A DNA stretch of 47,381 nucleotides, from positions 1 to 47,381 of the forward strand of contig JABDJX010000103.1 in assembly GCA_013003245.1 (NCBI GenBank). Direction: 5' to 3'. The position numbers were made by a program, and so were the translations under genes. Shown here piece by piece: positions 23,934 through 41,649 of this stretch. The notes under the pieces are model-generated. The model saw nothing but the letters and a program-made list of their open reading frames with translations, did no database searches and was not told the origin of the DNA. Position 1 is the stretch's first letter. The number at the start of each line of letters is the position of its first letter. The DNA is from Silicimonas sp. (lineage in GTDB: Bacteria > Pseudomonadota > Alphaproteobacteria > Rhodobacterales > Rhodobacteraceae).

Positions 23934-24338
23934 TCAAATCAGCGAAAATTTTTGGGTCGAGTAGTCAAGGCGCACAGTCACAGTGCCCTCGTTGATCAGC
24001 CATGGGCGTACATGGAAACTTCGCGCGCCTCGTGCATGCATGGGATCACTTTCTGCAATTGCGATGGCTTCGTCACGTGATGCGGCGCGGACAACAACCA
24101 TCCCCTCGCCCGCCCATTCCTGCTCGTCATCCGTCCACATGGGGCCAGCGGCAAACATGATGCCATCTTTTTCAAGCTGAACCTGAAACGCAAGGTGGTC
24201 TTCCAGATTCGCAAATACCGCCCCCATCCCGTCAGTTGGTTTGGTGAAGATCGCATAAAGTTGCTTTTGCAGCATCGCGCTACTTGCTTCCAACACTGCT
24301 CCTTTCGGAACTGCTTTCGGGTTATCGTTTTCACTCAT
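23934..24338 (-). CDS. YciI-like (dimeric alpha/beta barrel) protein
   Basis: 134 aa. The C-terminal part (MFAAGPMWTDD...MVVVRAASRDEAIAIAESDPMHARG...VRPW) has the YCII pattern. It carries an N-terminal extension of about 30 aa. Confidence 0.65.
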   Translation of the reverse strand: MSENDNPKAVPKGAVLEASSAMLQKQLYAIFTKPTDGMGAVFANLEDHLAFQVQLEKDGIMFAAGPMWTDDEQEWAGEGMVVVRAASRDEAIAIAESDPMHARGARSFHVRPWLINEGTVTVRLDYSTQKFSLI

Positions 24339-24365
24339 CTGCCACCCTCCCTGGATGCCTTTGGA

Positions 24366-25511: not shown

Positions 25512-25540
25512 TGTGGCTCCTCTATTTCTTCAGCTGGGGC

Positions 25541-26338
25541 CTAATCACGCTTGGATGTTTTGCCGTCATACGAAATCGCAATGTCCGCTTTATGGGACAT
25601 GATAAACCCGATAGAGCGCATCGATTCTTCGTAAAGATGTGCCGCCAGACCAGCGGTGCGCGCCAGTAGAGGAACGGCTTTGAGGGCCTCAAGCGGCCAG
25701 CCGGCATCCAAAATGACGGCTGGGATAGCGCCAGAGACGTTTATGGGGAGCGGGCGATTGATAATCCCGGGCGCGTGCTTGGCCAAAGCGCGAAGCGTCT
25801 CGATATACGGTCCGCTGATGTCCAACTCGTCAGCGATTTCAAGAAGCTTATCGGCACGTGGGTCGCCGGCACTATGCTGCGGATGCCCAAGACCTGGCAC
25901 CTTTTCGCGGCGCTCTTTAAGACTATGCAAAGATGCGATTGCTGCGGTTTCGATGTCGGTTCCATCGGCCTCCGCTTTTGCCATGACTTCCGCCAGAAAC
26001 CTGCCCGCAGTTTCCGAGCTGCCTGCAACCACACTGCCCATTCCCAAAAGACCCGCCGCCATGGCGCCCTGCCATGCATCCGGTCCGGCTGCCAGTGTCA
26101 TGCGCGCGGCCTGAACGCTTGGCACCAAACCATGCTCTGCAATCGCGACTAGGCAGGCATCCAACATTTTGCGCTGTGCGGGGCTTGGGTGCTCGCCAAT
26201 GACCAGCAACCAGAAATAGTCGGTAAATGCGATTCCACCGATCAACTCGTCACAAAGATTGTGCCCGCGAACCGTTATGGAATCGGCATCCGACGTTGCG
26301 ATTGCAGTAAAGGCCTGGTCCTGTTTGCCAATCCGCAT
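25541..26338 (-). CDS. short citrate-synthase-fold protein (citryl-CoA lyase-like)
   Basis: Start moved to ATG 26338 (MRIGKQDQ), giving 265 aa. It aligns by eye to the C-terminal half of citrate synthase (IAEHG, PGLGHPQHSAGDPRA, ARTAGLAAHLYEE). Confidence 0.7.
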   Translation of the reverse strand: MRIGKQDQAFTAIATSDADSITVRGHNLCDELIGGIAFTDYFWLLVIGEHPSPAQRKMLDACLVAIAEHGLVPSVQAARMTLAAGPDAWQGAMAAGLLGMGSVVAGSSETAGRFLAEVMAKAEADGTDIETAAIASLHSLKERREKVPGLGHPQHSAGDPRADKLLEIADELDISGPYIETLRALAKHAPGIINRPLPINVSGAIPAVILDAGWPLEALKAVPLLARTAGLAAHLYEESMRSIGFIMSHKADIAISYDGKTSKRD

Positions 26339-26478
26339 ATCAATCCCCTTTTTCGCATACCGAAATACTTTTCTCTTGCCGAACGATATGACGCGGCGTA
26401 ACCTTCCGTCAAGTTGCATGTGCATCGCCGGGGCTTCCCAACCTGACCCCCGAAGCGAACAAGGGACAGTAGCTGCGA

Positions 26479-27312
26479 ATGGAAGCGTCAGTTATGAACT
26501 CAAATCCGGGCTTAAACGATGGCGACAGACCGGCAGAGTTTGTGGAGGCTTTGGCAAAAGGCCTTGGAATACTACAGTCGTTTGATGCCGCGAACCCTGA
26601 ACGCACACTCAGCGAAGTCGCCCGCGTTGTGGGTCTGTCTCCGGCTGCGGCAAGGCGCAGTCTGATTACGTTAACCGCGCTTGGCTATGTCGGGCAAAGA
26701 AACAAACGTTTTCACCTGCGCCCCAAAGTAATGACTCTGGGATCGGCGTTTTATTATTCTGCGCGTATAGACGAAGTGTTGCAGCCGTTCCTGCGCGACT
26801 TGGTCGACAAATTTGGCGACGCCTCGTCGGTGGGCACTTTGGATGGGCAGGACGTCATCTACATCGCCCACAGTTCTGTGCAACGCGCTCGGCGCGCCGC
26901 GGCAGTGGTTGGGGCGCGCTATCCGGCATACGCCACGTCTTTGGGGCGCGTACTGCTGGCTGGATTGAGCGAGGAAAGACTTGAAGCCTACTTTGATGGC
27001 TTTGAACCGGTTGCACTGACATCCAAAACACTGACCGACCCCAAGATCATCCGCACAGAAATTGCCGCCGTTCGTGATGCTGGGTATGCCACAACGGTTG
27101 ATCAACTTGACTATGGAATAACAGCCCTGGCCGTTCCAATCAGGGGGATCGATGGCAGAACGGTAGCTGCATTAAATACATCTGGCTACACCGGGATGGT
27201 TAATCCAGAAGAACTGATCGACGCAAGGCTGCCCGAGTTGCGCATAATTTCCTCGGGCATAAGCAATGCGTTAACCCGATTCCCGATGCTTGAATCGATC
27301 ATCGGACCATAA
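26479..27312 (+). CDS. IclR family transcriptional regulator (PcaR/PobR-like)
   Basis: 277 aa: FVEALAKGLGILQSF...LSEVARVVGLSPAAARRSLITLTALGYV, followed by an IclR effector domain. An alternative start is ATG 26494. Confidence 0.85.
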   Translation: MEASVMNSNPGLNDGDRPAEFVEALAKGLGILQSFDAANPERTLSEVARVVGLSPAAARRSLITLTALGYVGQRNKRFHLRPKVMTLGSAFYYSARIDEVLQPFLRDLVDKFGDASSVGTLDGQDVIYIAHSSVQRARRAAAVVGARYPAYATSLGRVLLAGLSEERLEAYFDGFEPVALTSKTLTDPKIIRTEIAAVRDAGYATTVDQLDYGITALAVPIRGIDGRTVAALNTSGYTGMVNPEELIDARLPELRIISSGISNALTRFPMLESIIGP

Positions 27313-27348
27313 TTAAAGAAAAGAAGTCCTTCAGGAGGAGACCCGAAA

Positions 27349-28842
27349 ATGTGCAGACTGTGCGATCCGCAAAAGCCTCAAGTGCCCTGCCCGATAAACA
27401 TGAGTGCGCAGGCCGGCGCCGATGCCAAGACCTTGGCGCTGACCGGAACAGCAGAAGCTCAAAAGGCCGCCGCCGCAAGTCTGCCCAAGGGGCTGGGAAC
27501 GCCTGGTCGCCAAGTCCTGATCAAAGGCGGCGCTGTCTTGTCGATGGATGACAAAGTTGGGAATTTCGCGGTTGGCGATGTGCTGATTGATGGCGGCAAA
27601 ATCGCAGCGGTTGGCAGCGATATTGACGCGCCGGACGCCGAAGTGATCAATGCAGCGGGCAAGATTGTCATGCCGGGCTTTGTTGACACGCATCACCACC
27701 AGTTTGAGACCGCCCTGCGCAGTCAGTTGTCCAATGCAATTTTGATTAATGACGGTCGACCCTCCAGTGTCTCCAACTACTACGAGACGATGCTGCAAGG
27801 ATTCTCGATGGTGTATCGGCCTGAAGACGTTTACATCAATGAACTTTTCGGAGGCATCTCTCAGTTGGACGCAGGCGTGACAACAGTTATGGACGTCAGC
27901 CAAATCCACCACTCGCCAGAACATTCGGACGCGGCCATCGAAGGACTTCGCGACGCCGGACGGAGGGGCGTATTCGGCTATTTCGAAGGCTGGGGCGACC
28001 ACGCGAAATACCCTGCGGATGCGGCCCGAATCAAAGATCAATACTTCGCCTCGGATGATCAGCTGACAACTATGGTCATGGGCGGAGAGATTTATCTGCC
28101 CGGCTACGAGGAAGCCTGGAAAGTCGGGCGCGAACTGGGCCTGCCGATTGCCTTGCACGTCGTCGGCACCTTTGGCATGCAGGAAACCTTTGACCAGTTA
28201 GCCACATCGGGCATGTTCGGAGATGACAATATCTTTATCCACATGACCGGCATGTCGGAAGAGGCTTGGAAGCACGCCGCAGATGCAGGATCACACGTCT
28301 CGTTGTCAGTGCCGATCGAAATGCACATGCGCCACGGCACGCCACCCATCCAAAAGGCGCTTGATTTGGGCATGTCTACGTCGCTTTCAACAGACGTTGA
28401 GTGCACGATGACTGCCGATTTCTTCACCCAGATGCGTGCGATGGTCAGCCTGCAGCGCATGGTTGCAAATGAAAAGGCGCTTTCCGGCGAAGAATACCCC
28501 GAGTTGATGGAATGTATCCAAGCCATCGGCCACGCCACGATGGGTGGCGCCAAGGGTCTGCGGCTGGACCACAAGATTGGCTCACTCACCCCGGGAAAGG
28601 ACGCTGACATTATCTTGCTGGACGCCGAGGCAATGAACGTGGCACCGCTTAACAACGTGCCGGGCGCCGTTGTCACTTTGATGGAGCGGAGCAATGTCGA
28701 TACTGTCATGGTCGCAGGGGAGATCAAGAAATGGAAAGGTCAATTGCTTGGCTTTGACATTGCACGTTTGCGCAGCGAATTGGAAAACAGCCGCAACTTC
28801 ATATTTGAAGCCGCAAAAATCGATCGCGACCTGTTCGCCTGA
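27349..28842 (+). CDS. amidohydrolase superfamily metallo-hydrolase (Amidohydro_1 type), substrate unknown
   Basis: 497 aa. AGGAGGA Shine-Dalgarno 9 nt upstream. HxH motif in PGFVDTHHHQFE. Later HV/HM motifs and a C-terminal GSLTPGKDADIILLD motif. Confidence 0.8.
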   Translation: MCRLCDPQKPQVPCPINMSAQAGADAKTLALTGTAEAQKAAAASLPKGLGTPGRQVLIKGGAVLSMDDKVGNFAVGDVLIDGGKIAAVGSDIDAPDAEVINAAGKIVMPGFVDTHHHQFETALRSQLSNAILINDGRPSSVSNYYETMLQGFSMVYRPEDVYINELFGGISQLDAGVTTVMDVSQIHHSPEHSDAAIEGLRDAGRRGVFGYFEGWGDHAKYPADAARIKDQYFASDDQLTTMVMGGEIYLPGYEEAWKVGRELGLPIALHVVGTFGMQETFDQLATSGMFGDDNIFIHMTGMSEEAWKHAADAGSHVSLSVPIEMHMRHGTPPIQKALDLGMSTSLSTDVECTMTADFFTQMRAMVSLQRMVANEKALSGEEYPELMECIQAIGHATMGGAKGLRLDHKIGSLTPGKDADIILLDAEAMNVAPLNNVPGAVVTLMERSNVDTVMVAGEIKKWKGQLLGFDIARLRSELENSRNFIFEAAKIDRDLFA

Positions 28843-28866
28843 AAAGTATCTCGAAAGGAGTGAGCC

Positions 28867-29727
28867 ATGGCCCAACTTGTTGCTACCCTCGCCTCAACCC
28901 ACCATCCATTCTACCTTAAGGCAACTACAATGCCGCCCGAGCAGCAGATGCCGCAAGCGCCGGAATGGAAACGCAAGATTGAGGCCTATCGCGAGACGCT
29001 GGAGCGGACCAAGCCGGATATCCTTGTAATGATCGGCTCGGACCACTTTCATCAGATATTTCTGGACAACTGCCCGCAATTTCTGATCGGTAAGGCTCCG
29101 CGGTATGATGCGACATTCTACAATGAAGAGCGTGAATTCGGGCTGCCCAAATATGTGCTTGAAGGTCACGAAGACATGTCAAACTTCATGCACCAGAATT
29201 TGCTGGATCAGGACTTTGACTTTGCCTTTTCCAACGAGTTGAAAATCGACCACTCGATCATTTGCCCGATTATAACAGTGCGTCCAGATAACGACCTACC
29301 GGTCGTGCCGATCTACACCAACATCTTCGCCCCGCCCCTGCCTTCGCCGCTTCGTTTTTACAATTTGGGTCGCGCAATCCGCAAAGCCATCGACGCATAT
29401 CCATCGGACAAGCGCATCGCCGCAATTGGCACCGGGCATTTGTCGCTTGAGCTTGGCGGACCGCGGCAATTCATGGAAACAGGGCCAGATCCCGAGTTCG
29501 ACCACCAAGCCATCGAATGGCTCCGTAACGGAGACATTGACGCCATTTTGGACAATGTCGATCACGACTCCATGGCCAAAAGCGGCAACGCAACACACGG
29601 CTTTTTGAACTTTATCCTGATGCTTGGCGTGGCAGGACCCGAGGGCGCTGACTACGTTGACAACCTTGATCTGTTCCACACCATGGAAGCCTATTTCACA
29701 TGGTACCCCAAGGAGGTAGCGGCATGA
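28867..29727 (+). CDS. class III (LigB-type) extradiol dioxygenase catalytic subunit
   Basis: 286 aa: ASTHHP..., MIGSDHFH, KIDHS, AIGTGHLS, which form the LigB-family His-rich pattern. Confidence 0.85.
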   Translation: MAQLVATLASTHHPFYLKATTMPPEQQMPQAPEWKRKIEAYRETLERTKPDILVMIGSDHFHQIFLDNCPQFLIGKAPRYDATFYNEEREFGLPKYVLEGHEDMSNFMHQNLLDQDFDFAFSNELKIDHSIICPIITVRPDNDLPVVPIYTNIFAPPLPSPLRFYNLGRAIRKAIDAYPSDKRIAAIGTGHLSLELGGPRQFMETGPDPEFDHQAIEWLRNGDIDAILDNVDHDSMAKSGNATHGFLNFILMLGVAGPEGADYVDNLDLFHTMEAYFTWYPKEVAA

Positions 29728-30089
29728 GCAAGTACTACGTCAACAAGTTCCTTTTCACCGTTGATCGTGACCCGGAATACCTCAAACGCTATACCGAAGA
29801 CCCGCGCAATTTTGTTGCCACTTGGGAGCAATCGATTGGTCCGCGTCTGAACGCTGCCGAAATGTCATCGGTTCACGGCTTTACGGATGCCGAACGAGAA
29901 GCATTGATAAACCACGACTATGTTGCACTGTTTGAGATGGGCGCGCATTTCTTTTTGAACCTGACGATCTTCATCGGCATTTACGATGAACCCTATATGA
30001 AAGAAGGGGGCCCGCTCGCGTTCCAAAAGGAATTTGCAGCAAAACTGCAGCATTGGAAGGGCAAAGACTATCCATCCGTCGCAACCTGA
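29724..30089 (+). CDS. LigA-domain small subunit of the LigB-type dioxygenase
   Basis: The ATG at 29724 overlaps the LigB stop (ATGA) and gives 121 aa: MSKYYVNKFLFTVDRDPEYLKRYTEDPRNF...TDAEREALINHDY..FEMGAHFF. This resembles the LigA/C-terminal domain of DesB/GalA. Confidence 0.75.
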   Translation: MSKYYVNKFLFTVDRDPEYLKRYTEDPRNFVATWEQSIGPRLNAAEMSSVHGFTDAEREALINHDYVALFEMGAHFFLNLTIFIGIYDEPYMKEGGPLAFQKEFAAKLQHWKGKDYPSVAT

Positions 30090-30136
30090 CCACTGCAAAA
30101 CAACCTCGCTCCTGCTGCTGAAAGGTACCCCATCTA

Positions 30137-31159
30137 ATGCTTTTTCCAACGTCTCTAGTCGGCAGTTATTGCCAACCTGACTGGCTGATCAACCGCGCTA
30201 AACTGGCAGGACAATACCCGCCGCGCACGCGCGCCAAAGAACTCTGGCGCATTGCACCCGAGTTCCTGAAAGAAGCCCAAGACGACGCCACGCGGATCGC
30301 GATCAGAGAGCAAGAAGAAGCGGGCTTGGATATCATTACAGATGGCGAAATCCGTCGCGAAAGCTACTCCAATCGGTTTGCAACAGCGCTGGACGGGTTG
30401 GATTTGAACAATCACGGCATGGTCAAAACGCGATCGGGCTCAATGGTGCCCGTACCACGCATTACAGGCAAAATCAGTCGCAAGGCAGCTGTCGAGGTCG
30501 AAGGCGTCAAATTCTTGAAGGCCCATACTGATCGTATGGTAAAAGTAACGCTTCCCGGTCCGTTTACGATGAGCCAGCAAGCCGTGAACGAACACTATCC
30601 CAACCTTGCCGAGGCAGCGATGGATTATGCCGCTGCGATCCGAGAAGAGATCGCTGAATTATTCGAGGCCGGCGCGGATGTGGTGCAATTGGACGAACCC
30701 TGGATGCAGGCACGCCCCGAGATTGCCGAGGACTATGGTCTGGACGCGCTTAACGCGGCTTTGGAAGGGGCGGCAGGCACCACGGCTGTGCACATCTGCT
30801 TTGGCTACGCCGCCATGACCAAAGATCGACCTGAAGGCTATTCCTTCCTTCCGCAATTCAAGGATTGTCATTGCAATCAGGTTAGCATCGAAACCGCGCA
30901 GTCAAATCTTGATACCTCCGTGCTTGAGCACTTGCGCTCCAAAAAGATCATTTTGGGCGTGCTGGACCTTAAAGACCCCAACGTCGAAAGCGCTGAGTTG
31001 GTGGCGTCTCGCATCCGGCGCGCTCTGCCGCACGTGGACGCCGAAAACGTGATTGTGGCTCCCGATTGCGGCTTGAAATACCTCCCACGAGATGTCGCCT
31101 TCGGAAAGATGAAGGCAATGGCTGATGGTGCCGCGATAGTACGATCTGAGATGTCTTAG
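30137..31159 (+). CDS. core-MetE-like protein (cobalamin-independent methionine synthase C-terminal barrel only)
   Basis: 340 aa. Colinear with the MetE C-terminal domain, with all four Zn-ligand positions present: VHICFGY (H,C), VSIETAQS (E), VAPDCGLKY (C). Also DIITDGEIRRESY and VQLDEPW. Confidence 0.8.
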   Translation: MLFPTSLVGSYCQPDWLINRAKLAGQYPPRTRAKELWRIAPEFLKEAQDDATRIAIREQEEAGLDIITDGEIRRESYSNRFATALDGLDLNNHGMVKTRSGSMVPVPRITGKISRKAAVEVEGVKFLKAHTDRMVKVTLPGPFTMSQQAVNEHYPNLAEAAMDYAAAIREEIAELFEAGADVVQLDEPWMQARPEIAEDYGLDALNAALEGAAGTTAVHICFGYAAMTKDRPEGYSFLPQFKDCHCNQVSIETAQSNLDTSVLEHLRSKKIILGVLDLKDPNVESAELVASRIRRALPHVDAENVIVAPDCGLKYLPRDVAFGKMKAMADGAAIVRSEMS

Positions 31160-31202
31160 AGTACGCGTTCAGACGGATGAAGCCTCTCAGTAGCTTAGAC
31201 CG

Positions 31203-31213
31203 CTGTATACAAT
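31203..31213. promoter_or_regulatory. candidate GntR/FadR-type operator CTGTATACAAT (TGTATACA core palindrome)
   Basis: Read directly. Its exact inverted partner lies 61 bp downstream. Confidence 0.5.
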
Positions 31214-31263
31214 ATGTGTCAAATATCGGATCATGGCAGCGAAATGCCTTGATTGATTCCGAA

Positions 31264-31274
31264 ATTGTATACAG
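31264..31274. promoter_or_regulatory. second operator copy ATTGTATACAG
   Basis: Exact reverse complement of 31203-31213. It lies upstream of the GGGAG-N7-GTG start that I favour for the GntR gene. Confidence 0.5.
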
Positions 31275-31312
31275 TCTATCGAAATGCATTGCCAACATCT
31301 GGGAGACTAAAC

Positions 31313-32044
31313 GTGAAATCCACCGACCTAAGTCAACTTGAGCGCGCCCTTTTGGGCCTGCGCTCTTTGGTTTTGGGAGGTACGTTTTCCAAGGGTCAGC
31401 GCCTGTCTGAAGTGGCGGTTGCCAAGCAACTCGGCACATCGCGCACGCCCTTGCGGCAAGCGATGGACCGACTGGTAAGCGAAGGCTTGCTGGAACGGAT
31501 CGCAACCGGTGGGTGCCGGGTCGCAACGTTTACAACAAACGACATAGCAGACGCGATCGAAATCAGAGGCGTGATTGAAGGAACGGCCGCACGCGTGGCC
31601 GCCGAGCGTGGCGTTGACGTGGTCCTTCTTGACCGCGCCAATGCCACGCTTGATCAGATTGATCTGGCCATCAATGTCCCAAACGGCCAAACCTTTAATC
31701 AATACGTACAGCAGAATGCACGCTTTCACGATCTGCTTGCCGATTTCCCGGCAAGTCCGCTGATCAAACGGGAAATCGAGCGCATGAGCCTGTTGCCTCT
31801 TGCGTCGCCTTCGTCTTTTCTAAGCGATCAAGCGCTGATCCCTGATTTTCAGGAGTCTTTACGTCACGCTCAACGCCAGCACCGCGCGATCATGGAAGCG
31901 ATAACAAATCGCGAAGGCGCACGCGCCGAAGCGTTGACCCGCGAACACGCGCGTCTTGCACTCGTCAATTTCAACTACCTGACAGAACACCGACCAGAAT
32001 TGGCCAAAGTGGTTCCGGGCCTCGCTTTGGTTGCATCGAAATAG
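31313..32044 (+). CDS. GntR family transcriptional regulator, FadR subfamily (FCD domain)
   Basis: The track ORF starts at TTG 31253. I prefer GTG 31313, which is preceded by GGGAG at 31301-31305. wHTH: RLSEVAVAKQLGTSRTPLRQAMDRLVSEGLLERI. Confidence 0.8.
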   Translation: MKSTDLSQLERALLGLRSLVLGGTFSKGQRLSEVAVAKQLGTSRTPLRQAMDRLVSEGLLERIATGGCRVATFTTNDIADAIEIRGVIEGTAARVAAERGVDVVLLDRANATLDQIDLAINVPNGQTFNQYVQQNARFHDLLADFPASPLIKREIERMSLLPLASPSSFLSDQALIPDFQESLRHAQRQHRAIMEAITNREGARAEALTREHARLALVNFNYLTEHRPELAKVVPGLALVASK

Positions 32045-32061
32045 AACTTGGGGGGATAAAA

Positions 32062-33456
32062 ATGACAAATCTTAGCACCGTTATGGCACAGCACAGCAAT
32101 CCGGTAGAGATGCTGCGCAACTCGAAAATTGGGATGTACGTCTATCCCGTTGTCACGCCAGAATTCAGTAACTGGCGGGATGAGCAGCGCGCGTGGCGCG
32201 AAACAGCGGTATTGTTCGACCAAACGCACCATATGGACGAATTGATCGTAGAAGGCCCGCAGGCGACCGAGTTTCTCTCGCATCACGGCATCAACTCGTT
32301 CGCGAATTTTGATCTTAACCGAGCAAAGCACTTTGTGCCGGTTACCCCAAACGGGCATGTCATAGGCGATCACATCATCTTTCGAGAGCGCGAGGATAAG
32401 TACATTCTGGTCGGGCGCGCACCAACCTCGAACTGGATGATGTTCTGTGCGGCACACGGAAACTGGAATGTGCGCCTGCGCTATGATCCGCGCTCGCCCA
32501 GCAGGCCCGAAGGTGAGCGCGTAATGCGTGAACACTATCGTTTTCAGATACAAGGCCCCGATGCGCCTGCGATTTTTGAAAAAATGAACGGTGGACCTGT
32601 TCCAGACATCAAGTTCTTCCACGTTGATCAGATAAATATCGGCTCCAAAAAGGTAACGGCGCTGCGCCATGGCATGTCCGGCGCGCCGGGCCTGGAAGTT
32701 TGGGGTCCGTATAAGGACAAGGACTATATACACTCTACCATCCTTCAGGCGGCGCGGGATGCAGGCGTTGATTTGGTACAGTGCGGCAGCCGTGCCTATT
32801 CGACCAACACGCTGGAATCCGGCTGGATACCGTCTCCCCTGCCGGGCATTTATACGGGCGACGGGATGCTTGCCGACTATCGCGATTGGTTAGGCGCTGA
32901 CATGTACGAGGCCGCAGGCGCGATTGGTGGATCGTTTGTGTCGGACAATATCGAAGACTACTACGTCAACCCCTTTGAGTTGGGCTACGACTTTTACATC
33001 GGCTGGAAGAAAGACGATTTCGTCGGCAAAGCTGCACTTGAAAAGATGAAGGGCGGCACAAACCGGAAAAAGGTTACATTTGAGTGGAACCGCGAGGACG
33101 TCTTGAAAGTCATCGCATCATCATTCGAGCAAGGCACGCCTTACAAATGGATCGACTTCCCCCAGCCAAACTATGCATCTTCGTCGGCAGATATGGTGAT
33201 GCGTGACGATAAAATGGTTGGGATGAGCATGTTCAACGGATACAGCTTTAACGAACGCTGTGTTCTTAGCCTTGGCGTGGTGGCTCAGGGCGTGCAAGTT
33301 GGCGATATTCTCAGCCTTAAATGGGGCGAACCGGAACGCACCGGCAAAACCTCTACAGAGGCTCATAAACAGACGGACATCCGCGTCCGCGTGGCCGAAA
33401 CACCTTATGCGAAGGACGCACGCGAAAACTATGCAGACAGCTGGCGGACAAGGTAA
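32062..33456 (+). CDS. tetrahydrofolate-dependent aromatic O-demethylase, LigM/DesA family (GcvT fold)
   Basis: 464 aa with long colinear matches to Sphingobium SYK-6 LigM as I recall it: VEMLRNSKIGMYVYPVVTPEFSNWRDEQRAWRETAVLFDQTHHM, GSRAYSTNTLESGWIPSPLPGIYTGD, AGAIGGSFVSDNIEDYYVNPFELGY. Confidence 0.85.
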   Translation: MTNLSTVMAQHSNPVEMLRNSKIGMYVYPVVTPEFSNWRDEQRAWRETAVLFDQTHHMDELIVEGPQATEFLSHHGINSFANFDLNRAKHFVPVTPNGHVIGDHIIFREREDKYILVGRAPTSNWMMFCAAHGNWNVRLRYDPRSPSRPEGERVMREHYRFQIQGPDAPAIFEKMNGGPVPDIKFFHVDQINIGSKKVTALRHGMSGAPGLEVWGPYKDKDYIHSTILQAARDAGVDLVQCGSRAYSTNTLESGWIPSPLPGIYTGDGMLADYRDWLGADMYEAAGAIGGSFVSDNIEDYYVNPFELGYDFYIGWKKDDFVGKAALEKMKGGTNRKKVTFEWNREDVLKVIASSFEQGTPYKWIDFPQPNYASSSADMVMRDDKMVGMSMFNGYSFNERCVLSLGVVAQGVQVGDILSLKWGEPERTGKTSTEAHKQTDIRVRVAETPYAKDARENYADSWRTR

Positions 33457-33538
33457 ACACCGTCAATAACATAGGGCGGGCGATCCGACAGGCGCCGCGC
33501 CTAACAACCAAAAGTGTCGATTACTGGGAGGAAAAGAC

Positions 33539-34519
33539 ATGAAATTCAAAACACTACTGGCCGCATCGGTCATTGCTGCGACCGCCGGCATCTCCGCTGC
33601 GGCGCAAGAACTTAGCTTTGCAAACTTTACCCCGCCATTTCACACGGTGAACGCGTCTGTCATCGAAAAAATGAATGCGGATATCTCGGCCGCGACCAAT
33701 GGCGAGGTTACAGTGCGCGGCTATCATGGCGGTGAACTGGGCGCCGGACCGGTTGAGCAATATGTGCGCGTTGTCCAAGGCGTAGCTGACATTGCTTGGG
33801 GCTTGCCCGGATATACGTCGTCACAGTTTGAACAGACGATGATTGTCGAACTGCCCGGCACCTTGACCAATGAAGACGCGGGCTATGCCGCGATGTGGGC
33901 CGCGTATGACGAACACCTTGCAGGCGAATTTCCAGGCACCGTTCCGGTGGCGATGTGGACCTCAGAGCCCAACGTGTTCATCATGAAAGGCCATGTGATC
34001 CGCACGCCTGCTGATCTTGCTGGTCTTAAGGTGCGCGTTGCAGGGGCCACAGCCGCTGAGGTTGCCAGCGCACTTGGCGCAACACCTGTGCAAATGCCGA
34101 TCAACCAGGTTTACAACGCACTTCAGACCGGCCTGATAGACGGCGTCATCACCGGGTCATCGACATTGAATGACTTTAAACTGGACGAAGTCGCCGATAG
34201 CTACACCTTTGGTGCAAACCTGGGTCGGCTGTCGTTTTATGCTGTCATGAACGAAGGCGTCTACAACGGGCTAAGTGACGAGGCCAAGGCGGCATTGGAC
34301 AGCTCTTCGAACACGGCAATTTCCAAAAGTGCAGAAGACGCCTGGAATGCGACATCAGACGCAGGCGTAGCAACCGCCCGCGCTTTGGACGAAAACACAT
34401 TTATCGACCTGACCGAAGAAGAAGCAGCCGCTTTCGCCGAGGCAATCTCGGCTGTTACCGGGGCCTATGTAGATAACGTCGGCGGTGCCGCCACGCTGGC
34501 AGCGATGCAAGGCAACTAG
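33539..34519 (+). CDS. dctP: TRAP transporter substrate-binding protein (DctP family)
   Basis: 326 aa. Signal peptide MKFKTLLAASVIAATAGISAAAQ. Confidence 0.9.
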   Translation: MKFKTLLAASVIAATAGISAAAQELSFANFTPPFHTVNASVIEKMNADISAATNGEVTVRGYHGGELGAGPVEQYVRVVQGVADIAWGLPGYTSSQFEQTMIVELPGTLTNEDAGYAAMWAAYDEHLAGEFPGTVPVAMWTSEPNVFIMKGHVIRTPADLAGLKVRVAGATAAEVASALGATPVQMPINQVYNALQTGLIDGVITGSSTLNDFKLDEVADSYTFGANLGRLSFYAVMNEGVYNGLSDEAKAALDSSSNTAISKSAEDAWNATSDAGVATARALDENTFIDLTEEEAAAFAEAISAVTGAYVDNVGGAATLAAMQGN

Positions 34520-34525
34520 GCCAAC

Positions 34526-35038
34526 ATGCTTGCGCAGTTGCGCATTTGGGCGGACAGGCTCATCGGTCTGTCCGCAAACATCGGCGCCCTCGGCCTTTTG
34601 GTCGAGGTCGTTGTCATTTTGATCGATGTCGTGGGACGCGCCTTTGGCAGCCCGCTTTTTGGTAGCCAGGACATCATCACCATGGGAATGACGGTGCTGG
34701 TCTTCGGTGCCATGGCGATGTGCGATCGCAACGGCGGCCATATCGCAGTTGATCTGCTGGAACGGCGGTACCCGAGTTGGCTCAATCGCTGGATTGATAT
34801 CTGTGCCGCAGTACTGGGTGCGGTGATTTTTGCTTTCATTGCATGGGCGATCATCGACAGCGCGAAACTGAGTGTGATGCTGAATCTGTCTACCAACCTG
34901 CTGCGCCTGCCCAAAGCGTGGTTTCAGTGGGGTTTGGCCGGGTTCTCTGTACTCACCGCACTGGGGATGCTTTTGCGGGCCGCCGAACTTTTCTTGTCCG
35001 GCCGAGATGTTCGCGCAGAAAGGGCATCACCGGTATGA
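34526..35038 (+). CDS. dctQ: TRAP transporter small permease (DctQ family)
   Basis: 170-aa hydrophobic protein with an ATGA overlap with dctM. Confidence 0.85.
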   Translation: MLAQLRIWADRLIGLSANIGALGLLVEVVVILIDVVGRAFGSPLFGSQDIITMGMTVLVFGAMAMCDRNGGHIAVDLLERRYPSWLNRWIDICAAVLGAVIFAFIAWAIIDSAKLSVMLNLSTNLLRLPKAWFQWGLAGFSVLTALGMLLRAAELFLSGRDVRAERASPV

Positions 35039-36339
35039 GCGCGGAACAAATGGGCCTTGTCGGCATCGTGGCTTTGCTGGTCCTTCTCATCCTGCGGGTT
35101 CCCGTGGCATTTGCCATGTTCCTCGTTGGTTTCATTGGCATCTGGAGCGTTCGTGGCTGGGACGCCGCCATGGGGCTGCTAAGTTCAGAGACGTTCACCC
35201 TCGCGTCCTCGCCCGAGTTGGTTGTCATTCCCCTCTTTATCCTGATGGGAAACGTTGCCACGTCTACCGGCATGAGCCGCAAGCTCTATAACGCCGCGTA
35301 TGCAATAATAGGCCACATACGCGGTGGTCTGGCATCTGCAACGGTTGTCGGTTGCGGTGGATTTGCGGCTTTGTCAGGCTCCTCGGTCGCGTCAGCCCTG
35401 ACCATGGGCAAAGTGTCCCTGTCGGAAATGGATCGGTACAAATACGATCCACGCTTGTCGACGGGCGTTGTGGCGGCGGGGGGAACGCTTGGCATTCTCA
35501 TTCCGCCGTCCACCGGTTTTGTTATCTTTGCAATCCTGACCGAGCAATCCATCGGGCGCTTGTTTCTTGCAGGTGTTCTGCCGGGGCTATTGTTGCTGGC
35601 GATGTTTATGCTGACTGTAACCCTGATTTGCTACATCCGGCCGGAAGCCGGACCACGCGGCCCGCGCACGTCATGGCGCGAAAAGCGTGCGGCTTTGGGG
35701 GGCGCATTTCCGATCCTTGCTGTGATCATCGTCACCATCGGGGGCATATACGGCGGGCTGTTCTCGCCCGTTGAAGCGGCGGGCGTCGGCGCTGGTCTTG
35801 TGATCCTTTACGGGGTCTTCACGCGCAGGCTTGGCCTGGCAGAGTTCTGGCAATCCGCACGCAGTTCTGTTGTCACAACGGCCACGGTGATGCTGATCCT
35901 GATCGGTGCCCATATGATCAACCCGTTTCTGGCACTAAGCCACCTGCCAAGCTATGTCGGCGGAGGCCTCGTGGCTCTTGATCTTCCGGTTCTGGGGATC
36001 CTCGCCTTAATGTTGCTCGTTTATCTTGTACTGGGCTGCTTTCTTGAAGGTTTTGCGATGTTGGTTCTGACGTTGCCAATCTTCTTCCCGGTCGTGCTGC
36101 AATTGGGCATCGACCCCATTTGGTTCGGTGTCTTGGTTGTTCTGACGTTAGAGATGGGCCTGATCTCGCCGCCCGTCGGCATAAACGTCTTTATCGTGAA
36201 ATCCGTTGCACCCAACGTGTCACTTGGTGAGATTTTTCGCGGTGTGGCACCGTTTTGGGGCGCGATGCTCGTTACACTCTTGATCCTGATTGCGTTCCCG
36301 CAAATCTCACTGCTCCTCCCCAACACAATGTTCAACTAG
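35035..36339 (+). CDS. dctM: TRAP transporter large permease (DctM family)
   Basis: Start moved from 34843 to ATG 35035 (MSAEQMGLVGIVALL), giving 434 aa. Motifs VIPLFILMGNV and GLFSPVEAAGVG. Confidence 0.9.
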   Translation: MSAEQMGLVGIVALLVLLILRVPVAFAMFLVGFIGIWSVRGWDAAMGLLSSETFTLASSPELVVIPLFILMGNVATSTGMSRKLYNAAYAIIGHIRGGLASATVVGCGGFAALSGSSVASALTMGKVSLSEMDRYKYDPRLSTGVVAAGGTLGILIPPSTGFVIFAILTEQSIGRLFLAGVLPGLLLLAMFMLTVTLICYIRPEAGPRGPRTSWREKRAALGGAFPILAVIIVTIGGIYGGLFSPVEAAGVGAGLVILYGVFTRRLGLAEFWQSARSSVVTTATVMLILIGAHMINPFLALSHLPSYVGGGLVALDLPVLGILALMLLVYLVLGCFLEGFAMLVLTLPIFFPVVLQLGIDPIWFGVLVVLTLEMGLISPPVGINVFIVKSVAPNVSLGEIFRGVAPFWGAMLVTLLILIAFPQISLLLPNTMFN

Positions 36340-36350
36340 GAGATCTGTCC

Positions 36351-37085
36351 ATGGCTGACAAGAAATCCGCTCTCGTCATCTCGGCTCATTCTGCCGATTT
36401 CGTCTGGCGTTGCGGGGGAGCAATCGCCCTGCACCAAAAACTGGGATTTGAGGTCACCGTCGTGTGCCTGTCATACGGCGAGCGCGGCGAAAGTGCCAAA
36501 CTGTGGAAACAGGAAGGCATGACGCTGGAGAAGGTCAAAACGGCGAGACGCATAGAGGCTGAAAACGCAGCCAAAGCGCTGGACGTCCACGACATTCAGT
36601 TCTTCGACCTTGGCGACTATCCGTTAGAGCTTTCACGTGAGGAAAAATTCCGGCTGGTGGATGTGATCCGTGCTGTGCAACCGGATTTCATGCTCAGCCA
36701 TTCAAAATATGACCCGTACAACACCGATCATTCGTATACGACACAAGTGACTTTAGAAGCCCGCATGATCGCACAGGCTTGGGGGCACAACCCCGGTGAG
36801 CAAGTGCTGGGCGCACCTCAATTGTACCTGTTTGAGCCGCATCAAACCGAGCGCATGGAGTGGAAACCCGACACCTTCCTCGACATCACGGACGTATGGG
36901 ACAAAAAGCGTGCCGCCATCGAGTGCATGCAGGGCCAGGAACACCTTTGGGAGTTTTACACCCGTGTGGCACAACAACGGGCCAACCACTTCAAGCGCAA
37001 TTCGGGCGGACAATCGGGTGGGCGCAATTGCCAGTACGCCGAAGGGTTTCAATCCGTCTTCCCACGCACGGTGGACCAGCTATGA
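36351..37085 (+). CDS. galB: PIG-L/LmbE-family protein, probable 4-oxalomesaconate hydratase (GalB-like)
   Basis: ATG 36351, preceded by AGGAG. 244 aa: SALVISAHSADFVWRCGG (PIG-L AHxDD-type motif region). Context with GalC- and GalD-like genes. Confidence 0.7.
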   Translation: MADKKSALVISAHSADFVWRCGGAIALHQKLGFEVTVVCLSYGERGESAKLWKQEGMTLEKVKTARRIEAENAAKALDVHDIQFFDLGDYPLELSREEKFRLVDVIRAVQPDFMLSHSKYDPYNTDHSYTTQVTLEARMIAQAWGHNPGEQVLGAPQLYLFEPHQTERMEWKPDTFLDITDVWDKKRAAIECMQGQEHLWEFYTRVAQQRANHFKRNSGGQSGGRNCQYAEGFQSVFPRTVDQL

Positions 37086-38023
37086 GTGATATCGCACACC
37101 TTGGGCACGTCGAACTTTATACCGATCAGTTCGATGCAAGTGTCGATTTTTTCACGCGTGTTTACGGGCTGACACTTAGCGAGCAGATAGGCGACAGTGC
37201 TTATTTGCGCGCCTTTGACGACTATGAATTCCACACCCTGAAACTGACCAAATATCACACCACCGGGGTTGGCCACATCGCATATCGCGCGGCCTCAGAG
37301 GAGGCCTTGATGCACCGTGTCGCGCTGATTGAGCAAAGTGGATACGAGACAAATGGTTGGGTCGATGACGACCCCGGGCATGGACGGGCCTTTCGGTTCA
37401 AAGACCCGTTCAACCATACGTTTGAGATTTACTGGGACACCAAGCGCTATCAGGCACCGCCAGATGAAAAGCCTGCCCTGAAGAACCTTGCGCAACGTTA
37501 TCACGGGCGCGGTGCATGTCCGCGCCGATTGGATCACGTGAACCTTCTTGCCACAGACGTGGCCGAGTTTCGGCGGTTTATGGAAATATGCCTTGGCAGC
37601 CGAGTGACGGAAATGATCCAGCTTGATAACGGGCGCATCGGCGGGTGCTGGTTTACCGTTAACAACAAAACCTACGATCTGGCCTGCACCGAAGAGCACG
37701 GCAAGGCCGACGGTCGTTTCCACCATCTGACCTATGCCACAGATCAGCGCGAAGATATCTTGCGTGCAGCAGACATCTTCCTTGAAAACGGAGTCCACAT
37801 CGAAACCGGCCCGCATAAACATGCGATCCAAGGCACGTTCTTTCTCTATGTCTGGGAACCGGCAGGCAATCGGGTTGAACTGGCCAATGCAGGCGCAAGG
37901 CTGATCCTTGCCCCGGATTGGGAGCCGGTCGTTTGGACCGAAACAGAGCGGAAAAAGGGGCAAGCCTGGGGTTTGAAAACCATCGATACGTTTCATACCC
38001 ACGGCACGCCGCCTGTCGAATAA
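37082..38023 (+). CDS. type I (VOC, two-domain) extradiol dioxygenase, catechol 2,3-dioxygenase-like
   Basis: The ATG at 37082 overlaps the galB stop (ATGA) and gives 313 aa. The metal ligand pattern matches XylE positions: RRLDHVNLL (His), FHHLTYA (His), [13 protein letters not shown] (Glu). Also [14 protein letters not shown]. Confidence 0.85.
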
Positions 38024-38033
38024 GGAGACGAAC

Positions 38034-38705
38034 ATGAACGTTGTCGTGCAAAACATCCCACGCGCGGATCCAGCCATCATAAAGGATCTGGGCGCTGCAG
38101 GTGTGGCAACCGTTCACGAAGCGCAAGCGCGGACAGGATTGCTTGCCAGCTACATCCGGCCGATTTATCGCGGCGCGTCCATTGCCGGGTCGGCTGTTAC
38201 AATCCTTGCACCTCCGGGCGACAATTGGATGCTGCACGTCGCGATTGAACAGCTCCAGCCAGGCGACATTCTTGTTCTTGGAACCACCGAGCCATCGGAT
38301 GCAGGCTATTTCGGAGATCTACTTGCCACATCAGCGAAGGCCCGCGGCTGTCGTGGGCTGATCATTGATGCCGGCGTGCGTGACGTGCGCGATCTGGAAG
38401 CCATCGGGTTTCCGGTCTGGTCCAAGGCGATTTGCGCGCAAGGCACGATCAAGGAAACGCTTGGCTCCGTCAACGTGCCGATTATCTGTGCGGGCGCGGC
38501 GATAAACCCCGGCGACGTTATTGTAGCGGATGACGACGGGGTCTGCGTGGTCGCACATGGTGAAGCTGAAACGGTCAACAAAGCCGCGCAAGCCCGTATC
38601 GCCAACGAAGAAGAAAAACGTGCCCGGTTTGAACAAGGTGAGTTGGGGCTGGATATGTACGACATGCGCGACCGGCTTGAAAAAGCAGGGCTTATTTATG
38701 TCTGA
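38034..38705 (+). CDS. galC: RraA-fold 4-carboxy-4-hydroxy-2-oxoadipate (CHA/HMG) aldolase/oxaloacetate decarboxylase (GalC/LigK-like)
   Basis: 223 aa. AAGGAG Shine-Dalgarno. VATVHEAQ...[11 protein letters not shown]...[27 protein letters not shown]...FPVWSK. Confidence 0.85.
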
Positions 38706-39753
38706 CGGCATTGCGTGCATGTGGATGCGTGGTGGGACGTCTAAGGGCGGCTACTTTCTGGCCTCAGACCTTCCCAAGGATGTCGCCGAGCGCGATGCGG
38801 TTCTTTTGTCGATCATGGGAAGCCCGGACGCGCGGCAAATTGACGGCATGGGCGGGGCGGATCCGCTAACGTCAAAGGTTGCCATTGTAAGCCCATCCAT
38901 GCGGGATGGTGTTGATGTGGACTATCTGTTCTTACAGGTCGCCGTCGATCAACCGCTGGTTTCTGACGGGCAAAACTGCGGGAATATCCTTGCCGGAGTG
39001 GCACCTTTTGCGATTGAACGCGGGCTTGTGGCGGTCAATCAGCCTGAAACAATTGTTCGCATATTCATGCGCAACACCGGCCAGACTGCGCAGGCACGCG
39101 TTGCAACGCCACGCGGCTTTGTCGCGTATGCCGGAGATGCCCAGATCGACGGCGTACCAGGAACAGCCGCCGCGGTGCCAATCGCATTTGAGGACACTGC
39201 CGGGTCAAGCTGTGGGGCACTTTTTCCAACCGGGCATCCAACCGACCAGATCCTGGGCACAGATGTGACGCTGATTGACAACGGAATGCCCTGCGTCTTG
39301 CTGCGCGCGGGTGACCTTGGTCTAACCGGGACCGAGGACCCTGCCACGCTGGAAAGCAATCAGAGCCTGCGCGATCAGCTAGAGGCCATTCGATTAGAGG
39401 CTGGCCCAATGATGAATTTGGGCGATGTCGCGCAAAAGACAGTTCCGAAAATGACGCTGATTGCAGCGCCGCAAAGGGGTGGCTCTATCACGACACGCAC
39501 CTTTATTCCGCATCGTTGTCACAAAGCGATTGGTGTTCTGGGCGCTGTAAGTGTCGCCACGGCGTGTCTAACACCCGGAACGGTCACTCAGGATTTTGCG
39601 CATTTTGAGGGATCATCAAGACCTGTTTTGTCCATTGAGCATCCGACAGGTCAAATGACAATCATTGCGCACATCGACAACGGCAGTGTCACTCGCACCG
39701 AAGTCCTGCGTACGGCACGCAAATTGATGGATGGCCTAGTGTTCAAGGCATAG
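38698..39753 (+). CDS. galD: PrpF-family isomerase, probable 4-oxalomesaconate tautomerase (GalD-like)
   Basis: ATG 38698, overlapping the galC 3' end, giving 351 aa: [15 protein letters not shown]...[18 protein letters not shown]...[15 protein letters not shown]. Confidence 0.85.
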
Positions 39754-39767: not shown

Positions 39768-41429
39768 TCACTGCGCGGCTTGCGCACAATAGCAGGAGGC
39801 ACCGATGATACCGTCAGCACGCGCTTCTGCGATCGCCAATTTCTGAGCAATCAATCGGCCCTCAAGACCTCGTCCCTCTCCGCGAGCATTCAAGCAATCG
39901 TTCAGGCCGCGCAGGCTCCACACATTGTCTGGATGGATTTGCGCCCGGCTCAGTGTGCCGCCAAGTCCAAGGTCTTCCCGATAAACCGCCTCTGCGTCAT
40001 CCACATGGCCCTGCTCTAGAAGCAATGCCCCCAGCGCGTGACGTGTCGGCTGCATCCAGCCCCAGGGTTCGTCGTAAGGAAGCGCGTCCTCCAGAGCCAC
40101 CGCATCACGCAGACTTTTATACGCGCGATCGTAGTTGCCCTTCCGGTATTCAATCTCCCCTTCCAGCATCGCCTCCGCCACGGCCAGCTGTTCCAGACAT
40201 AACACATTGTGCAGGCGGCGATCCTCTGGCATCGCATCTCGCGCAGCAAGGAACAGCCTTTGCTCGACTTCAGCCTCTGGCACGTCGCCAAGTGCTGCAT
40301 GGGCCACACCTTTGGCGTAGTGCAGTGTCGCCGTCAGATTGGCCCAAAGCGCCGGGTCGTCTGGCAGCGGCTCGGCGATAAGTTCGCGCCACTTTCCAAA
40401 ACGGATCATCACGTGAACCCAAAGTGCAAAATAGCTTTCAAAGAAAGTCGCGAATGGCGGCGATTCAACCAAGAGCAACTCTTTTGGTGTCACGTCTACA
40501 AGCTCGCGCGCCATACGCATGGCCGGCTCATATTGGCCAAGGAACATCGCCCCGTAGGCCGCAAAATGGTAATTGTGGATGCGGTAGCCGGTGTAAAGCG
40601 TGTAGACACCTGCGTCCTCCAAGGCTTTACGGTCAACCTGCGTGGCCTTCCAGTTCCAATGATAAACATCACGGTAATACCCACACTGAACATCGATATG
40701 GGTTGGCATGTGCATGAGATGCCCTGCATCCGGCACCAGTTCGCGCAGCGCGTCGCCAGCCTTCAATGCCTTTTCCGGTGTTGGCGACATTTCCATTAAG
40801 TGCACGTAAAGGTGAAGTATGCCCGGATGAGACCACGCGTCCTCGTGACGGTCAAGCATCGTCTCCAAAACTTCTTGAGCTTCGAGCGTTCCAGCGTCCT
40901 TTGCGGCAAGGCCGGTCGTCTGATCCCACATATTCCAAGGGGTTCGATTCATGATTGCTTCGACAAAAATACAGGCAACATCAAGATCGCCGGGAAAAGC
41001 CTCAAAAACCCCACGCATCGCGTTGGCATAGTCGTCGTTCCATCCGCGCATGACATCGAAGTCTTCCGGCGCGCTCTGAGGAAACCGGGAAGGCAGCGCC
41101 TCAATTATCGCGCGTTCAAATGGTGTTACTTTCTCGATCAGCGCAATTGCAGCTTGTGTTGCCGAATAACAGGTTTTGGCAGTGTCTGAACGCATGTTCG
41201 CATCGCGCCGCTCCCAAGGCATGTTGTAGTTCGGGCCTGCGGCATAGGCGACACCCCAATGGGCCATTGCGCATTCCGGATCGGCCTCTATTGCACGGCG
41301 AAAGCAAGCCACGGCCTCATCATGATAATATGCATTGGTCCAGACTAGCCCGCGATTGAACCAAAGCTGCGCGTTCGGTGAAGATGTGGAAATGCGCCGT
41401 TCATAAACGTCGATGTCATAATAATCCAT
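39768..41429 (-). CDS. TPR-repeat protein of unknown function
   Basis: Start moved to ATG 41429 (MDYYDIDVYERR), giving 553 aa. Helical-repeat character throughout (FNRGLVWTNAYYHDEAVACFRRAIEADPECAMAHWG...). Convergent with galD, with a 14-nt gap. Confidence 0.65.
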   Translation of the reverse strand: MDYYDIDVYERRISTSSPNAQLWFNRGLVWTNAYYHDEAVACFRRAIEADPECAMAHWGVAYAAGPNYNMPWERRDANMRSDTAKTCYSATQAAIALIEKVTPFERAIIEALPSRFPQSAPEDFDVMRGWNDDYANAMRGVFEAFPGDLDVACIFVEAIMNRTPWNMWDQTTGLAAKDAGTLEAQEVLETMLDRHEDAWSHPGILHLYVHLMEMSPTPEKALKAGDALRELVPDAGHLMHMPTHIDVQCGYYRDVYHWNWKATQVDRKALEDAGVYTLYTGYRIHNYHFAAYGAMFLGQYEPAMRMARELVDVTPKELLLVESPPFATFFESYFALWVHVMIRFGKWRELIAEPLPDDPALWANLTATLHYAKGVAHAALGDVPEAEVEQRLFLAARDAMPEDRRLHNVLCLEQLAVAEAMLEGEIEYRKGNYDRAYKSLRDAVALEDALPYDEPWGWMQPTRHALGALLLEQGHVDDAEAVYREDLGLGGTLSRAQIHPDNVWSLRGLNDCLNARGEGRGLEGRLIAQKLAIAEARADGIIGASCYCAQAAQ

Positions 41430-41649
41430 GTGGCCCCCAAAAGCTGCTGACCACACTTTACGCCCAATCGGGATCGGGACAAAGTAGGCCGAGCAATTGA
41501 CCAATTTTTGCGGCGCTTGGAGGTAGCTCTGAATTGCCTCTTCGGGCACGGCAGTTGATGGCCCAGAGTATTGCCACTGACATCGATGATGACGATACAC
41601 TGCGGGGGCGACTGTCGGACGAACCGTGCTCTAGTCCGCGACATCAGGC

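Follow-up and report, generated by a model that had tools for sequence, protein, structure and literature searches.

We analyzed a 47,381-nucleotide stretch of DNA from Silicimonas sp. (assembly GCA_013003245.1, contig JABDJX010000103.1; hereafter, the window), in which a single 13-kb cluster for the degradation of methoxylated, gallate-type aromatic acids had been proposed between positions 26479 and 39753. Our analysis indicates that this 13-kb stretch is likely to be two separately conserved modules placed side by side. Module B (31.2-39.75 kb) is probably a complete operon for methylgallate/gallate breakdown, a variant of the known gal route with a non-homologous candidate ring-cleavage enzyme. 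Module A (20949-31159) would be a separate, CoA-dependent pathway.

Genes were called from the open reading frame (ORF) listing, profile scans with the Pfam and NCBIfam cut-offs, and a PDB sequence search. Fourteen genes, all intact and on the plus strand, lie between 26479 and 39753, and their families are those named in the initial annotation. The start of the unit at 26479 was not borne out: module A has a divergent layout, of which the IclR half that starts there is only one part, and the other half begins at 20949. The features are as follows (model scores are given with their cut-offs).

Module A
20949-22265, 22262-22831 and 22841-23914 (-): dctM, dctQ and dctP of a tripartite ATP-independent periplasmic (TRAP) transporter (Pfam DctM, DctQ, DctP)
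23934-24338 (-): YciI-like protein (PF03795)
24366-25511 (-): family III CoA-transferase (PF02515, E 4e-109; under all NCBIfam equivalog cut-offs)
25541-26338 (-; longest ORF to 26425): citrate-synthase-fold, citryl-CoA-lyase-like protein, hereafter the lyase (NF004868, 306, above 193)
26479-27312 (+): IclR regulator (PF01614/PF09339; PcaR/PcaU subfamily 242.8 bits, below 284.75)
27349-28842 (+): amidohydrolase, Amidohydro_1, deaminase/chlorohydrolase branch (PF01979; NF006056, 414, above 391)
28867-29727 (+): LigBx, atypical LigB-type dioxygenase subunit (PF02900)
29724-30089 (+): LigAx, LigA-like small subunit (ATGA overlap with LigBx; AlphaFold fold match to DesB)
30137-31159 (+): cMetE, core-MetE-like zinc enzyme (PF01717)

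Module B
31203-31213 and 31264-31274: inverted TGTATACA box pair, probable GntR operators and module B promoter region
31313-32044 (+; longest ORF from TTG 31253): GntR/FCD regulator (PF00392, PF07729)
32062-33456 (+): LigM-type tetrahydrofolate (THF)-dependent vanillate/3-O-methylgallate O-demethylase (NF047885, 627, above 580)
33539-34519, 34526-35038 and 35035-36339 (+): dctP, dctQ and dctM of a TRAP transporter (Pfam)
36351-37085 (+): GalB, PIG-L fold 4-oxalomesaconate hydratase (PDB 5cgz, E 1e-97)
37082-38023 (+): Diox1, two-domain type I (vicinal oxygen chelate, VOC) extradiol dioxygenase (PF00903 twice, Diox-like_N)
38034-38705 (+): GalC/LigK aldolase, RraA fold (TIGR02798, 374.5, above 304.5)
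38698-39753 (+): GalD, PrpF family 4-oxalomesaconate tautomerase (NF033377, 528.8, above 440)

Module B and its candidate ring-cleavage enzyme

Curated models or a solved orthologue establish what LigM, GalB, GalC and GalD are. GalB matches PDB 5cgz, the solved 4-oxalomesaconate hydratase of P. putida, with an E-value of 1.2e-97 over residues 7-245. LigM carries the GCV_T folate-binding domain (PF01571, 7e-37) and scores 551.7 with the DesA model NF047633, below the cut-off of 800; no second LigM/DesA-like gene was found in the window's genome. The corrected start of galB is the ATG at 36351, which is preceded by AGGAG. The Diox1 ATG at 37082 overlaps the galB stop, and the corrected galD start, the ATG at 38698, overlaps the galC stop. 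A second PrpF-family gene, 43% identical to GalD and scoring 451 against the tautomerase cut-off of 440, was observed on contig C97 of genome G000 (L118:766-1869), where it adjoins a D-2-hydroxyacid dehydrogenase gene away from gal genes.

Module B is likely to be a route from 3-O-methylgallate or gallate to pyruvate and oxaloacetate, and would form a single GntR-controlled operon. In the proposed scheme, the TRAP system would import a methoxylated or trihydroxylated benzoate. LigM would transfer the methyl group of 3-O-methylgallate to THF, leaving gallate, and Diox1, with its VOC fold, would convert gallate directly to 4-oxalomesaconate. This would then be tautomerised by GalD, hydrated by GalB and cleaved by GalC to pyruvate and oxaloacetate. 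The PDB matches of the two DctP proteins were too distant (1e-32 and 1e-13) to indicate their ligands.

To examine the conservation of module B, Diox1 relatives were collected by a scan of one genome per species, and the proteins of the window were mapped onto the best 80 loci. Sixty-one of these loci had at least 5 kb on both sides, and neighbors within 10 kb were counted in them. At least one gal gene lies near Diox1 in 48 of the 61 loci. All of galB, galC and galD are present in 40, which belong to Rhodobacterales, Rhizobiales and Pantoea/Erwinia. GntR and LigM accompany Diox1 in 15 loci, and LigM with TRAP genes in eight (e.g., L001/L002, L053, L055, L070 and L074/L075, with the TRAP genes between LigM and Diox1). 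Two Yoonia metagenome-assembled genomes (MAGs) have the identical order GntR-LigM-dctPQM-galB-Diox1-galC-galD, with other DNA upstream and no module A there. An Agrobacterium pAt plasmid (walnut) carries galB, a gene labeled 'VOC family protein', galC, galD and a tannase gene in this order. The block is kept in related Rhodobacterales. For 31.2-39.75 kb, these results support the methoxylated gallate-type route that had been proposed, since LigM, the TRAP genes, GalB, GalC, GalD and the embedded ring-cleavage enzyme form a conserved block; they do not support it for all 13 kb as one pathway.

The 153-nt region 5′ of the GntR gene carries the two inverted TGTATACA boxes. The box recurs 5′ of the GntR gene in each of 11 related loci; six of these have a pair spaced approximately 62-73 bp apart. 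The pair is therefore predicted to be the probable GntR operators.

Diox1 occupies the ring-opening position of module B. It consists of two VOC domains, and the LDH, HH and EP-GNR ligand motifs of its His/His/Glu iron site align with those of PDB 9wgj and 3lm4. The match to 9wgj has an E-value of 2e-99 and approximately 55% identity, by eye, over 310 residues. Relatives with 77-88% identity occur in more than 580 species (one genome per species), spread over Rhodobacterales, Rhizobiales and Enterobacterales (e.g., Pantoea and Erwinia), among others. RefSeq labels this family 'VOC family protein' or 'catechol 2,3-dioxygenase'. Among 200 genera of the window's own family, Diox1 was found in 31, LigM in 25 and both in 21.

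After 4,5-cleavage of protocatechuate, LigC and LigI are required before 4-oxalomesaconate is reached; the cleavage of gallate yields this compound directly. No LigI or LigJ equivalog was found in the window's genome; of two Amidohydro_2 genes considered there as candidates, one is fuconolactonase-like and the other is unassigned. Since only GalD, GalB and GalC are available downstream, with no LigI or LigJ, the cleavage product would be 4-oxalomesaconate, and the operon fits gallate. To our knowledge, all characterized bacterial gallate ring-opening enzymes are of the LigB type. No gene for a LigB-type protein (PF02900) was found in four of five related genomes that carry LigM and Diox1, one of the four being a closed genome. 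In the window's genome (95% complete), the single PF02900 gene is that of the atypical LigBx. Since four of the five carriers have no LigB-type gene, Diox1 is probably a gallate dioxygenase that replaces GalA/DesB.

Three points weigh against this assignment. PDB 9wgj, the closest solved structure, is titled only 'catechol 1,2-dioxygenase'. In the literature searched, we found neither a VOC/type I gallate dioxygenase nor an assay of any Diox1 orthologue. Furthermore, LigM also demethylates vanillate, and pcaHG is present elsewhere in the window's genome, so part of the role of module B could be vanillate use.

Alternatively, Diox1 may cleave another catechol, such as protocatechuate, pyrogallol or a homoprotocatechuate-like compound, and LigBx-LigAx would open gallate in this organism. 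Diox1 indeed scores near the catechol 2,3-dioxygenase model (TIGR03211, 292.6, below the cut-off of 320.2) and near HpaD. No gal gene lies within 10 kb of it in 13 of the 61 loci, e.g., on a Chimaeribacter plasmid, and its assignment to gallate derives from sequence context. However, Diox1 is translationally coupled within galB-galC-galD, and the 40 loci with all three gal genes, one of them with a tannase neighbor, point to the same pathway. In the four carrier genomes, no LigB-family gene is available to open gallate instead. Moreover, the products of protocatechuate cleavage would require LigC and LigI, which were not found in the window's genome. We consider cleavage of another catechol quite unlikely, and gallate is retained as the probable substrate of Diox1.

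Module A and its atypical enzymes

Module A is conserved as a unit outside the window. Martelella plasmid pMM593 and a TARA scaffold each carry a gene-for-gene copy of window positions 20949-30089, with dctMQP, YciI, CoA-transferase and lyase genes divergent from IclR, amidohydrolase, LigB and LigA genes. In Sinorhizobium, Aminobacter and Rhodococcus, the lyase, CoA-transferase, LigB and LigA genes occur with the amidohydrolase, other hydrolases or a cMetE orthologue, and without gal genes. LigBx is 76-92% identical in Roseibium, Martelella, Rhizobium, Neorhizobium, Aminobacter, Arthrobacter and Rhodococcus; among 300 genera of the window's own family, only one weak match was found.

A metagenome scan yielded 38 LigBx loci of at least 7 kb. 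LigAx follows LigBx in all 38, and cMetE lies directly after LigAx in eight. The CoA-transferase gene adjoins LigB-LigA in 29 loci, the lyase is present in 28, and the amidohydrolase and IclR are present in 24 each. Essentially no gal genes were found in these loci, save one GalD-like match of 55%. The divergent IclR/lyase layout is repeated in L085, L110, L111, L114 and L121, and YciI keeps its position in L085, L111, L114 and L121. Orthologues of the module A TRAP genes have the same position in pMM593, the TARA scaffold and family genomes.

In four family genomes, the IclR, amidohydrolase and cMetE genes, in some cases with a dihaem cytochrome c gene, lie opposite the lyase, CoA-transferase, YciI and TRAP genes. 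The dihaem cytochrome c gene is located between the amidohydrolase and cMetE genes in L110:9119-9973 and L111:9090-9910 (genomes G194 and G060), relatives that have no LigBx-LigAx. Thus, the core of module A does not always include a ring-cleavage dioxygenase.

The IclR-controlled divergent gene pair of module A may encode a CoA-dependent aromatic pathway. An aromatic carboxylate would be the substrate of LigBx-LigAx, the deaminase-type amidohydrolase and the MetE-like zinc enzyme. The resulting ring-fission acid would be activated by the family III CoA-transferase, and then cleaved by the citryl-CoA-lyase-like enzyme. The substrate may be an aromatic carboxylate, given the TRAP or ABC importer, and the ring-fission product a citrate-like hydroxy-tricarboxylate, given the lyase. 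Only unrelated genes were found when substrate clues were sought around module A in L192, L152, L112 and L115. The literature searched yielded nothing on clusters of lyase, CoA-transferase and LigAB genes, or on PDB 7nr2/7nra.

The best PDB match of LigBx is DesB (1e-20), and its score with the GalA model NF009904 is 104.8 against a cut-off of 412. LigBx was compared with DesB, whose residue roles were taken from PMC3962378, in a phmmer alignment, and residue conservation was assessed in 111 homologues. H12/H13, D59-H60 and D128-H129 of LigBx are invariant, and include the two metal-binding His residues and the catalytic-acid His (DesB His124). DesB His192 aligns to LigBx Leu194, which is invariant in the 111 homologues, as are LigBx His191 and Glu195. 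DesB Glu239 aligns to Gly. By this alignment, LigBx is without the canonical catalytic-base His (DesB His192, LigB His195; G-x-L-S-H motif), which is replaced by an invariant Leu, although the His may instead be shifted by three residues.

LigAx gave no Pfam, NCBIfam or PDB sequence match. Its AlphaFold model (31 homologues; mean predicted local distance difference test score, pLDDT, 89) was compared with solved structures, and the seven best structural matches were all DesB. It superposes on DesB residues 316-398 with a Z-score of 8.0-8.4 and a root-mean-square deviation of 2.8 Å over 83 residues. LigAx thus appears to be a LigA-like partner that resembles the C-terminal LigA-like domain of DesB; we give this match moderate weight, as the domain is helical.

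In the PDB, the amidohydrolase is closest to 8-oxoguanine deaminase and atrazine chlorohydrolase, although these matches reach only 1e-19. Its ORF opens with a Cys-rich extension of approximately 45 residues (window 27349-27500) before the usual β-sandwich start.

In cMetE, the zinc motifs are intact (H219-x-C221, E252 and C311). The scores are 244.9 with NF006589 and 233.4 with NF003317, below the cut-offs of 392 and 406, and cMetE is 34-36% identical to a plasmid-borne 'methionine synthase' group. Its orthologues (60-78% identity) occur in aromatic catabolic clusters. One in Aminobacter pUSP2 (66%) lies beside the lyase, CoA-transferase, LigB and LigA genes; others are inside module A in four family genera, and in a fifth family genus cMetE adjoins an intradiol dioxygenase gene. 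In L112:8861-9940 (G029), an intradiol dioxygenase gene of the catechol/hydroxyquinol type is directly 5′ of a 73% cMetE orthologue. This arrangement suggests that different ring-cleavage enzymes receive substrates prepared by the MetE-like enzyme. We also considered cMetE as a partner of LigM in THF recycling. This was rejected as the main explanation because the neighbors of cMetE are module A genes and 18 of the 25 LigM carriers have no cMetE. cMetE belongs to module A, not to LigM.

A further aromatic cluster was observed on contig C277 of genome G000 (L117:1179-9219). It contains a chlorocatechol/hydroxyquinol-like intradiol dioxygenase, TRAP genes, a glutathione S-transferase-like protein and a GntR regulator, and its DctP is 34% identical to the module A DctP.

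Relationship between the two modules

The adjacency of modules A and B was seen only in this genome. In the other family genomes, the modules are on different contigs or far apart. In the closest relatives of module A, on the TARA scaffold (LigBx 93% identical), neither cMetE nor module B follows LigAx, and the closest relatives of module B have no module A. LigBx, LigAx, cMetE, the amidohydrolase and IclR were found near Diox1 in none of the 61 loci. Diox1 was not found on five module A replicons, whose chromosomes were not searched. The initial annotation had placed two candidate ring-cleavage enzymes and two accessory enzymes in one pathway. This grouping was not supported, since IclR, the amidohydrolase, LigB-LigA and cMetE sit elsewhere with the CoA-transferase and lyase genes and without gal genes.

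Some observations run counter to the separation of the modules. They are co-directional and 153 nt apart at the 31159-31313 junction, so that read-through transcription is possible. In promoter and terminator consensus scans, the totals were not above the shuffled expectation, and nothing was found at the junction. In addition, LigM and Diox1 are present in seven of the ten family genomes that carry the lyase (Fisher P 1e-4) and in all seven that carry cMetE (Fisher P 5e-8), although related genomes are not independent in these tests. This co-occurrence may mean that both modules serve one niche (plant or algal phenolics) or that they are linked metabolically.

One form of such a link was considered as an integrated pathway. 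LigBx-LigAx would cleave 3-O-methylgallate to the methyl ester CHMOD, which the amidohydrolase would de-esterify to 4-oxalomesaconate for GalD, GalB and GalC. cMetE would dispose of the methyl-THF from LigM or perform a second O-demethylation, and Diox1 would take gallate in parallel. Such a branched system would resemble that of Sphingobium or the MgaAB/MgaC route known from Pseudomonas sp. NGC7. All the genes adjoin one another on one strand, the closest characterized relatives of LigBx are gallate dioxygenases, and LigAx resembles the C-terminal domain of DesB. A split GalA-like dioxygenase and a CHMOD hydrolase that feed GalDBC have a precedent (PMC12314914), and the genome-level co-occurrence described above also agrees with integration. 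However, apart from the single 55% GalD-like match, module A genes were beside gal genes in none of the 38 LigBx loci and none of the 61 Diox1 loci, and the two modules are separate or distant in every other family genome. Where the flanks are long enough, LigB-LigA is mostly beside the CoA-transferase and lyase genes, so that it would have a lower pathway of its own. By alignment, the canonical catalytic-base His is missing from LigBx, most LigM carriers have no cMetE, and the amidohydrolase is in the deaminase branch, not in a known esterase family. We regard the integrated pathway as unlikely.

A looser form of cooperation is a tentative possibility, which we rate as low. Here, module A would degrade a methoxylated or polyhydroxylated aromatic acid of lignin or tannin origin by a new, CoA-dependent type of meta-cleavage, and would cooperate with module B in this organism. 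The MetE-like zinc enzyme would remove an aryl methyl group with neither folate nor B12. LigB-LigA without the canonical catalytic His would open the ring, and the citrate-like acid would be converted to a CoA thioester and split by the citrate-synthase-fold lyase. Such cooperation would explain why cMetE occurs only in genomes with LigM and Diox1 (seven of seven).

The adjacency could also be an assembly artefact, namely a chimeric MAG contig joined at approximately 31.2 kb. The genome is in 302 contigs with an estimated contamination of 5.2%, and the junction was seen in no other genome. Nevertheless, the GC content is even across the junction (0.53-0.56), and the junction is an ordinary 153-nt intergenic region that contains the conserved operator boxes of module B. 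Both flanks of the surrounding 22-kb region also match a congener (see below). An artefact is thus very improbable, and the two modules are taken as true neighbors.

Window positions 19030-41745 (approximately 22.7 kb) have no counterpart in G212, the one congener searched, which has neither module. Both flanks are matched in this congener (70-81% identity) by distant sites of contig C6. Besides modules A and B, the region encodes an MDR dehydrogenase, a one-domain VOC protein and a 610-residue tetratricopeptide repeat (TPR) protein. Since the congener lacks approximately 22 kb and its flanks match, the whole stretch is accessory, and it looks like a species-specific accessory catabolic island.

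The gene of the TPR protein (39768-41600, minus strand) converges with galD, and the two stop codons are 14 nt apart. No orthologue of it was seen beside gal genes in the best 80 related dioxygenase loci. The window contains three complete TRAP systems and one orphan DctP. The upstream positions 13182-17322 and 17523-18215 hold two further DctP genes, one of which has its own DctQM (14443-17322), and another GntR/FCD regulator gene.

Comparison with known systems and significance

GalB, GalC and GalD are clear orthologues of the enzymes of the gal pathway of P. putida KT2440, and the logic from gallate through 4-oxalomesaconate to pyruvate and oxaloacetate is the same. In contrast, there is no fused LigB-LigA GalA, and a VOC type I dioxygenase is in the operon instead. 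Uptake is by TRAP here, whereas KT2440 uses the major facilitator superfamily (MFS) transporter GalT and the porin GalP. In Pfam scans of all the cluster genes, the regulators were GntR (module B) and IclR (module A), instead of the LysR-type GalR. The LigM O-demethylase is built into the operon. Module B belongs to the P. putida gal pathway family in its lower half, but not in its ring-cleavage, uptake and regulation parts. The use of TRAP genes in place of an MFS transporter or porin had been proposed as a distinctive feature. The genes are present, but TRAP uptake of lignin-derived aromatic acids is already known from TarPQM (PMC3610893).

With the syringate/3-O-methylgallate system of Sphingobium sp. 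SYK-6, module B has in common the THF-dependent LigM and the LigK-type and LigU/GalD-type enzymes. It differs in that no DesA, DesB, DesZ, LigAB orthologue, LigI or LigJ is present, and the hydratase is a PIG-L protein like GalB and not an amidohydrolase like LigJ.

In the linear 3-O-methylgallate pathway of Pseudomonas sp. NGC7 (MgaAB, MgaC, MgaD and GalDBC), split GalA-like dioxygenases can feed GalDBC (PMC12314914). A split GalA-like dioxygenase, galD, galB and galC in the genome, and a GntR-type regulator of the upper genes are shared with that strain. However, neither the α/β-hydrolase MgaC nor the SnoaL domain of MgaD is present in the cluster here, and demethylation would be by LigM instead of VanAB. 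LigBx-LigAx, which is without the canonical catalytic His, travels elsewhere with the CoA-transferase and lyase, not with gal genes.

Diox1 shares the two-domain VOC fold and the His/His/Glu site with catechol 2,3-dioxygenase, homoprotocatechuate 2,3-dioxygenase and 9wgj. It differs in that it is below the catechol 2,3-dioxygenase cut-off, and its genomic neighbors belong to the gallate lower pathway and not to a catechol meta pathway. cMetE has the same single MetE catalytic barrel and His-x-Cys, Glu, Cys zinc site as core-MetE/MesD (PMC7005905; PDB 3rpd; NF006589), although its score of 245 is below the cut-off of 392. Short MetE homologues of doubtful methionine-synthase function have been described in aerobic marine bacteria (PMC12478193; PMC7005905).

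Gallate and methylgallate derive from tannins and syringyl lignin. A conserved VOC-fold enzyme is in the position of the gallate ring-opening enzyme, often in genomes with no LigB-type gene, and this role would be new if it is true. It would then also correct a large block of annotations (more than 580 species). Module A would be a widespread pathway in which two enzymes are unusual, namely the LigB, in which the canonical base is missing, and the MetE-like protein, which would be catabolic. For the valorisation of lignin and tannin, module B would provide a compact route of seven enzymes, and it would illustrate how TRAP transporters bring terrestrial or algal phenolics into marine bacteria of the Roseobacter group.

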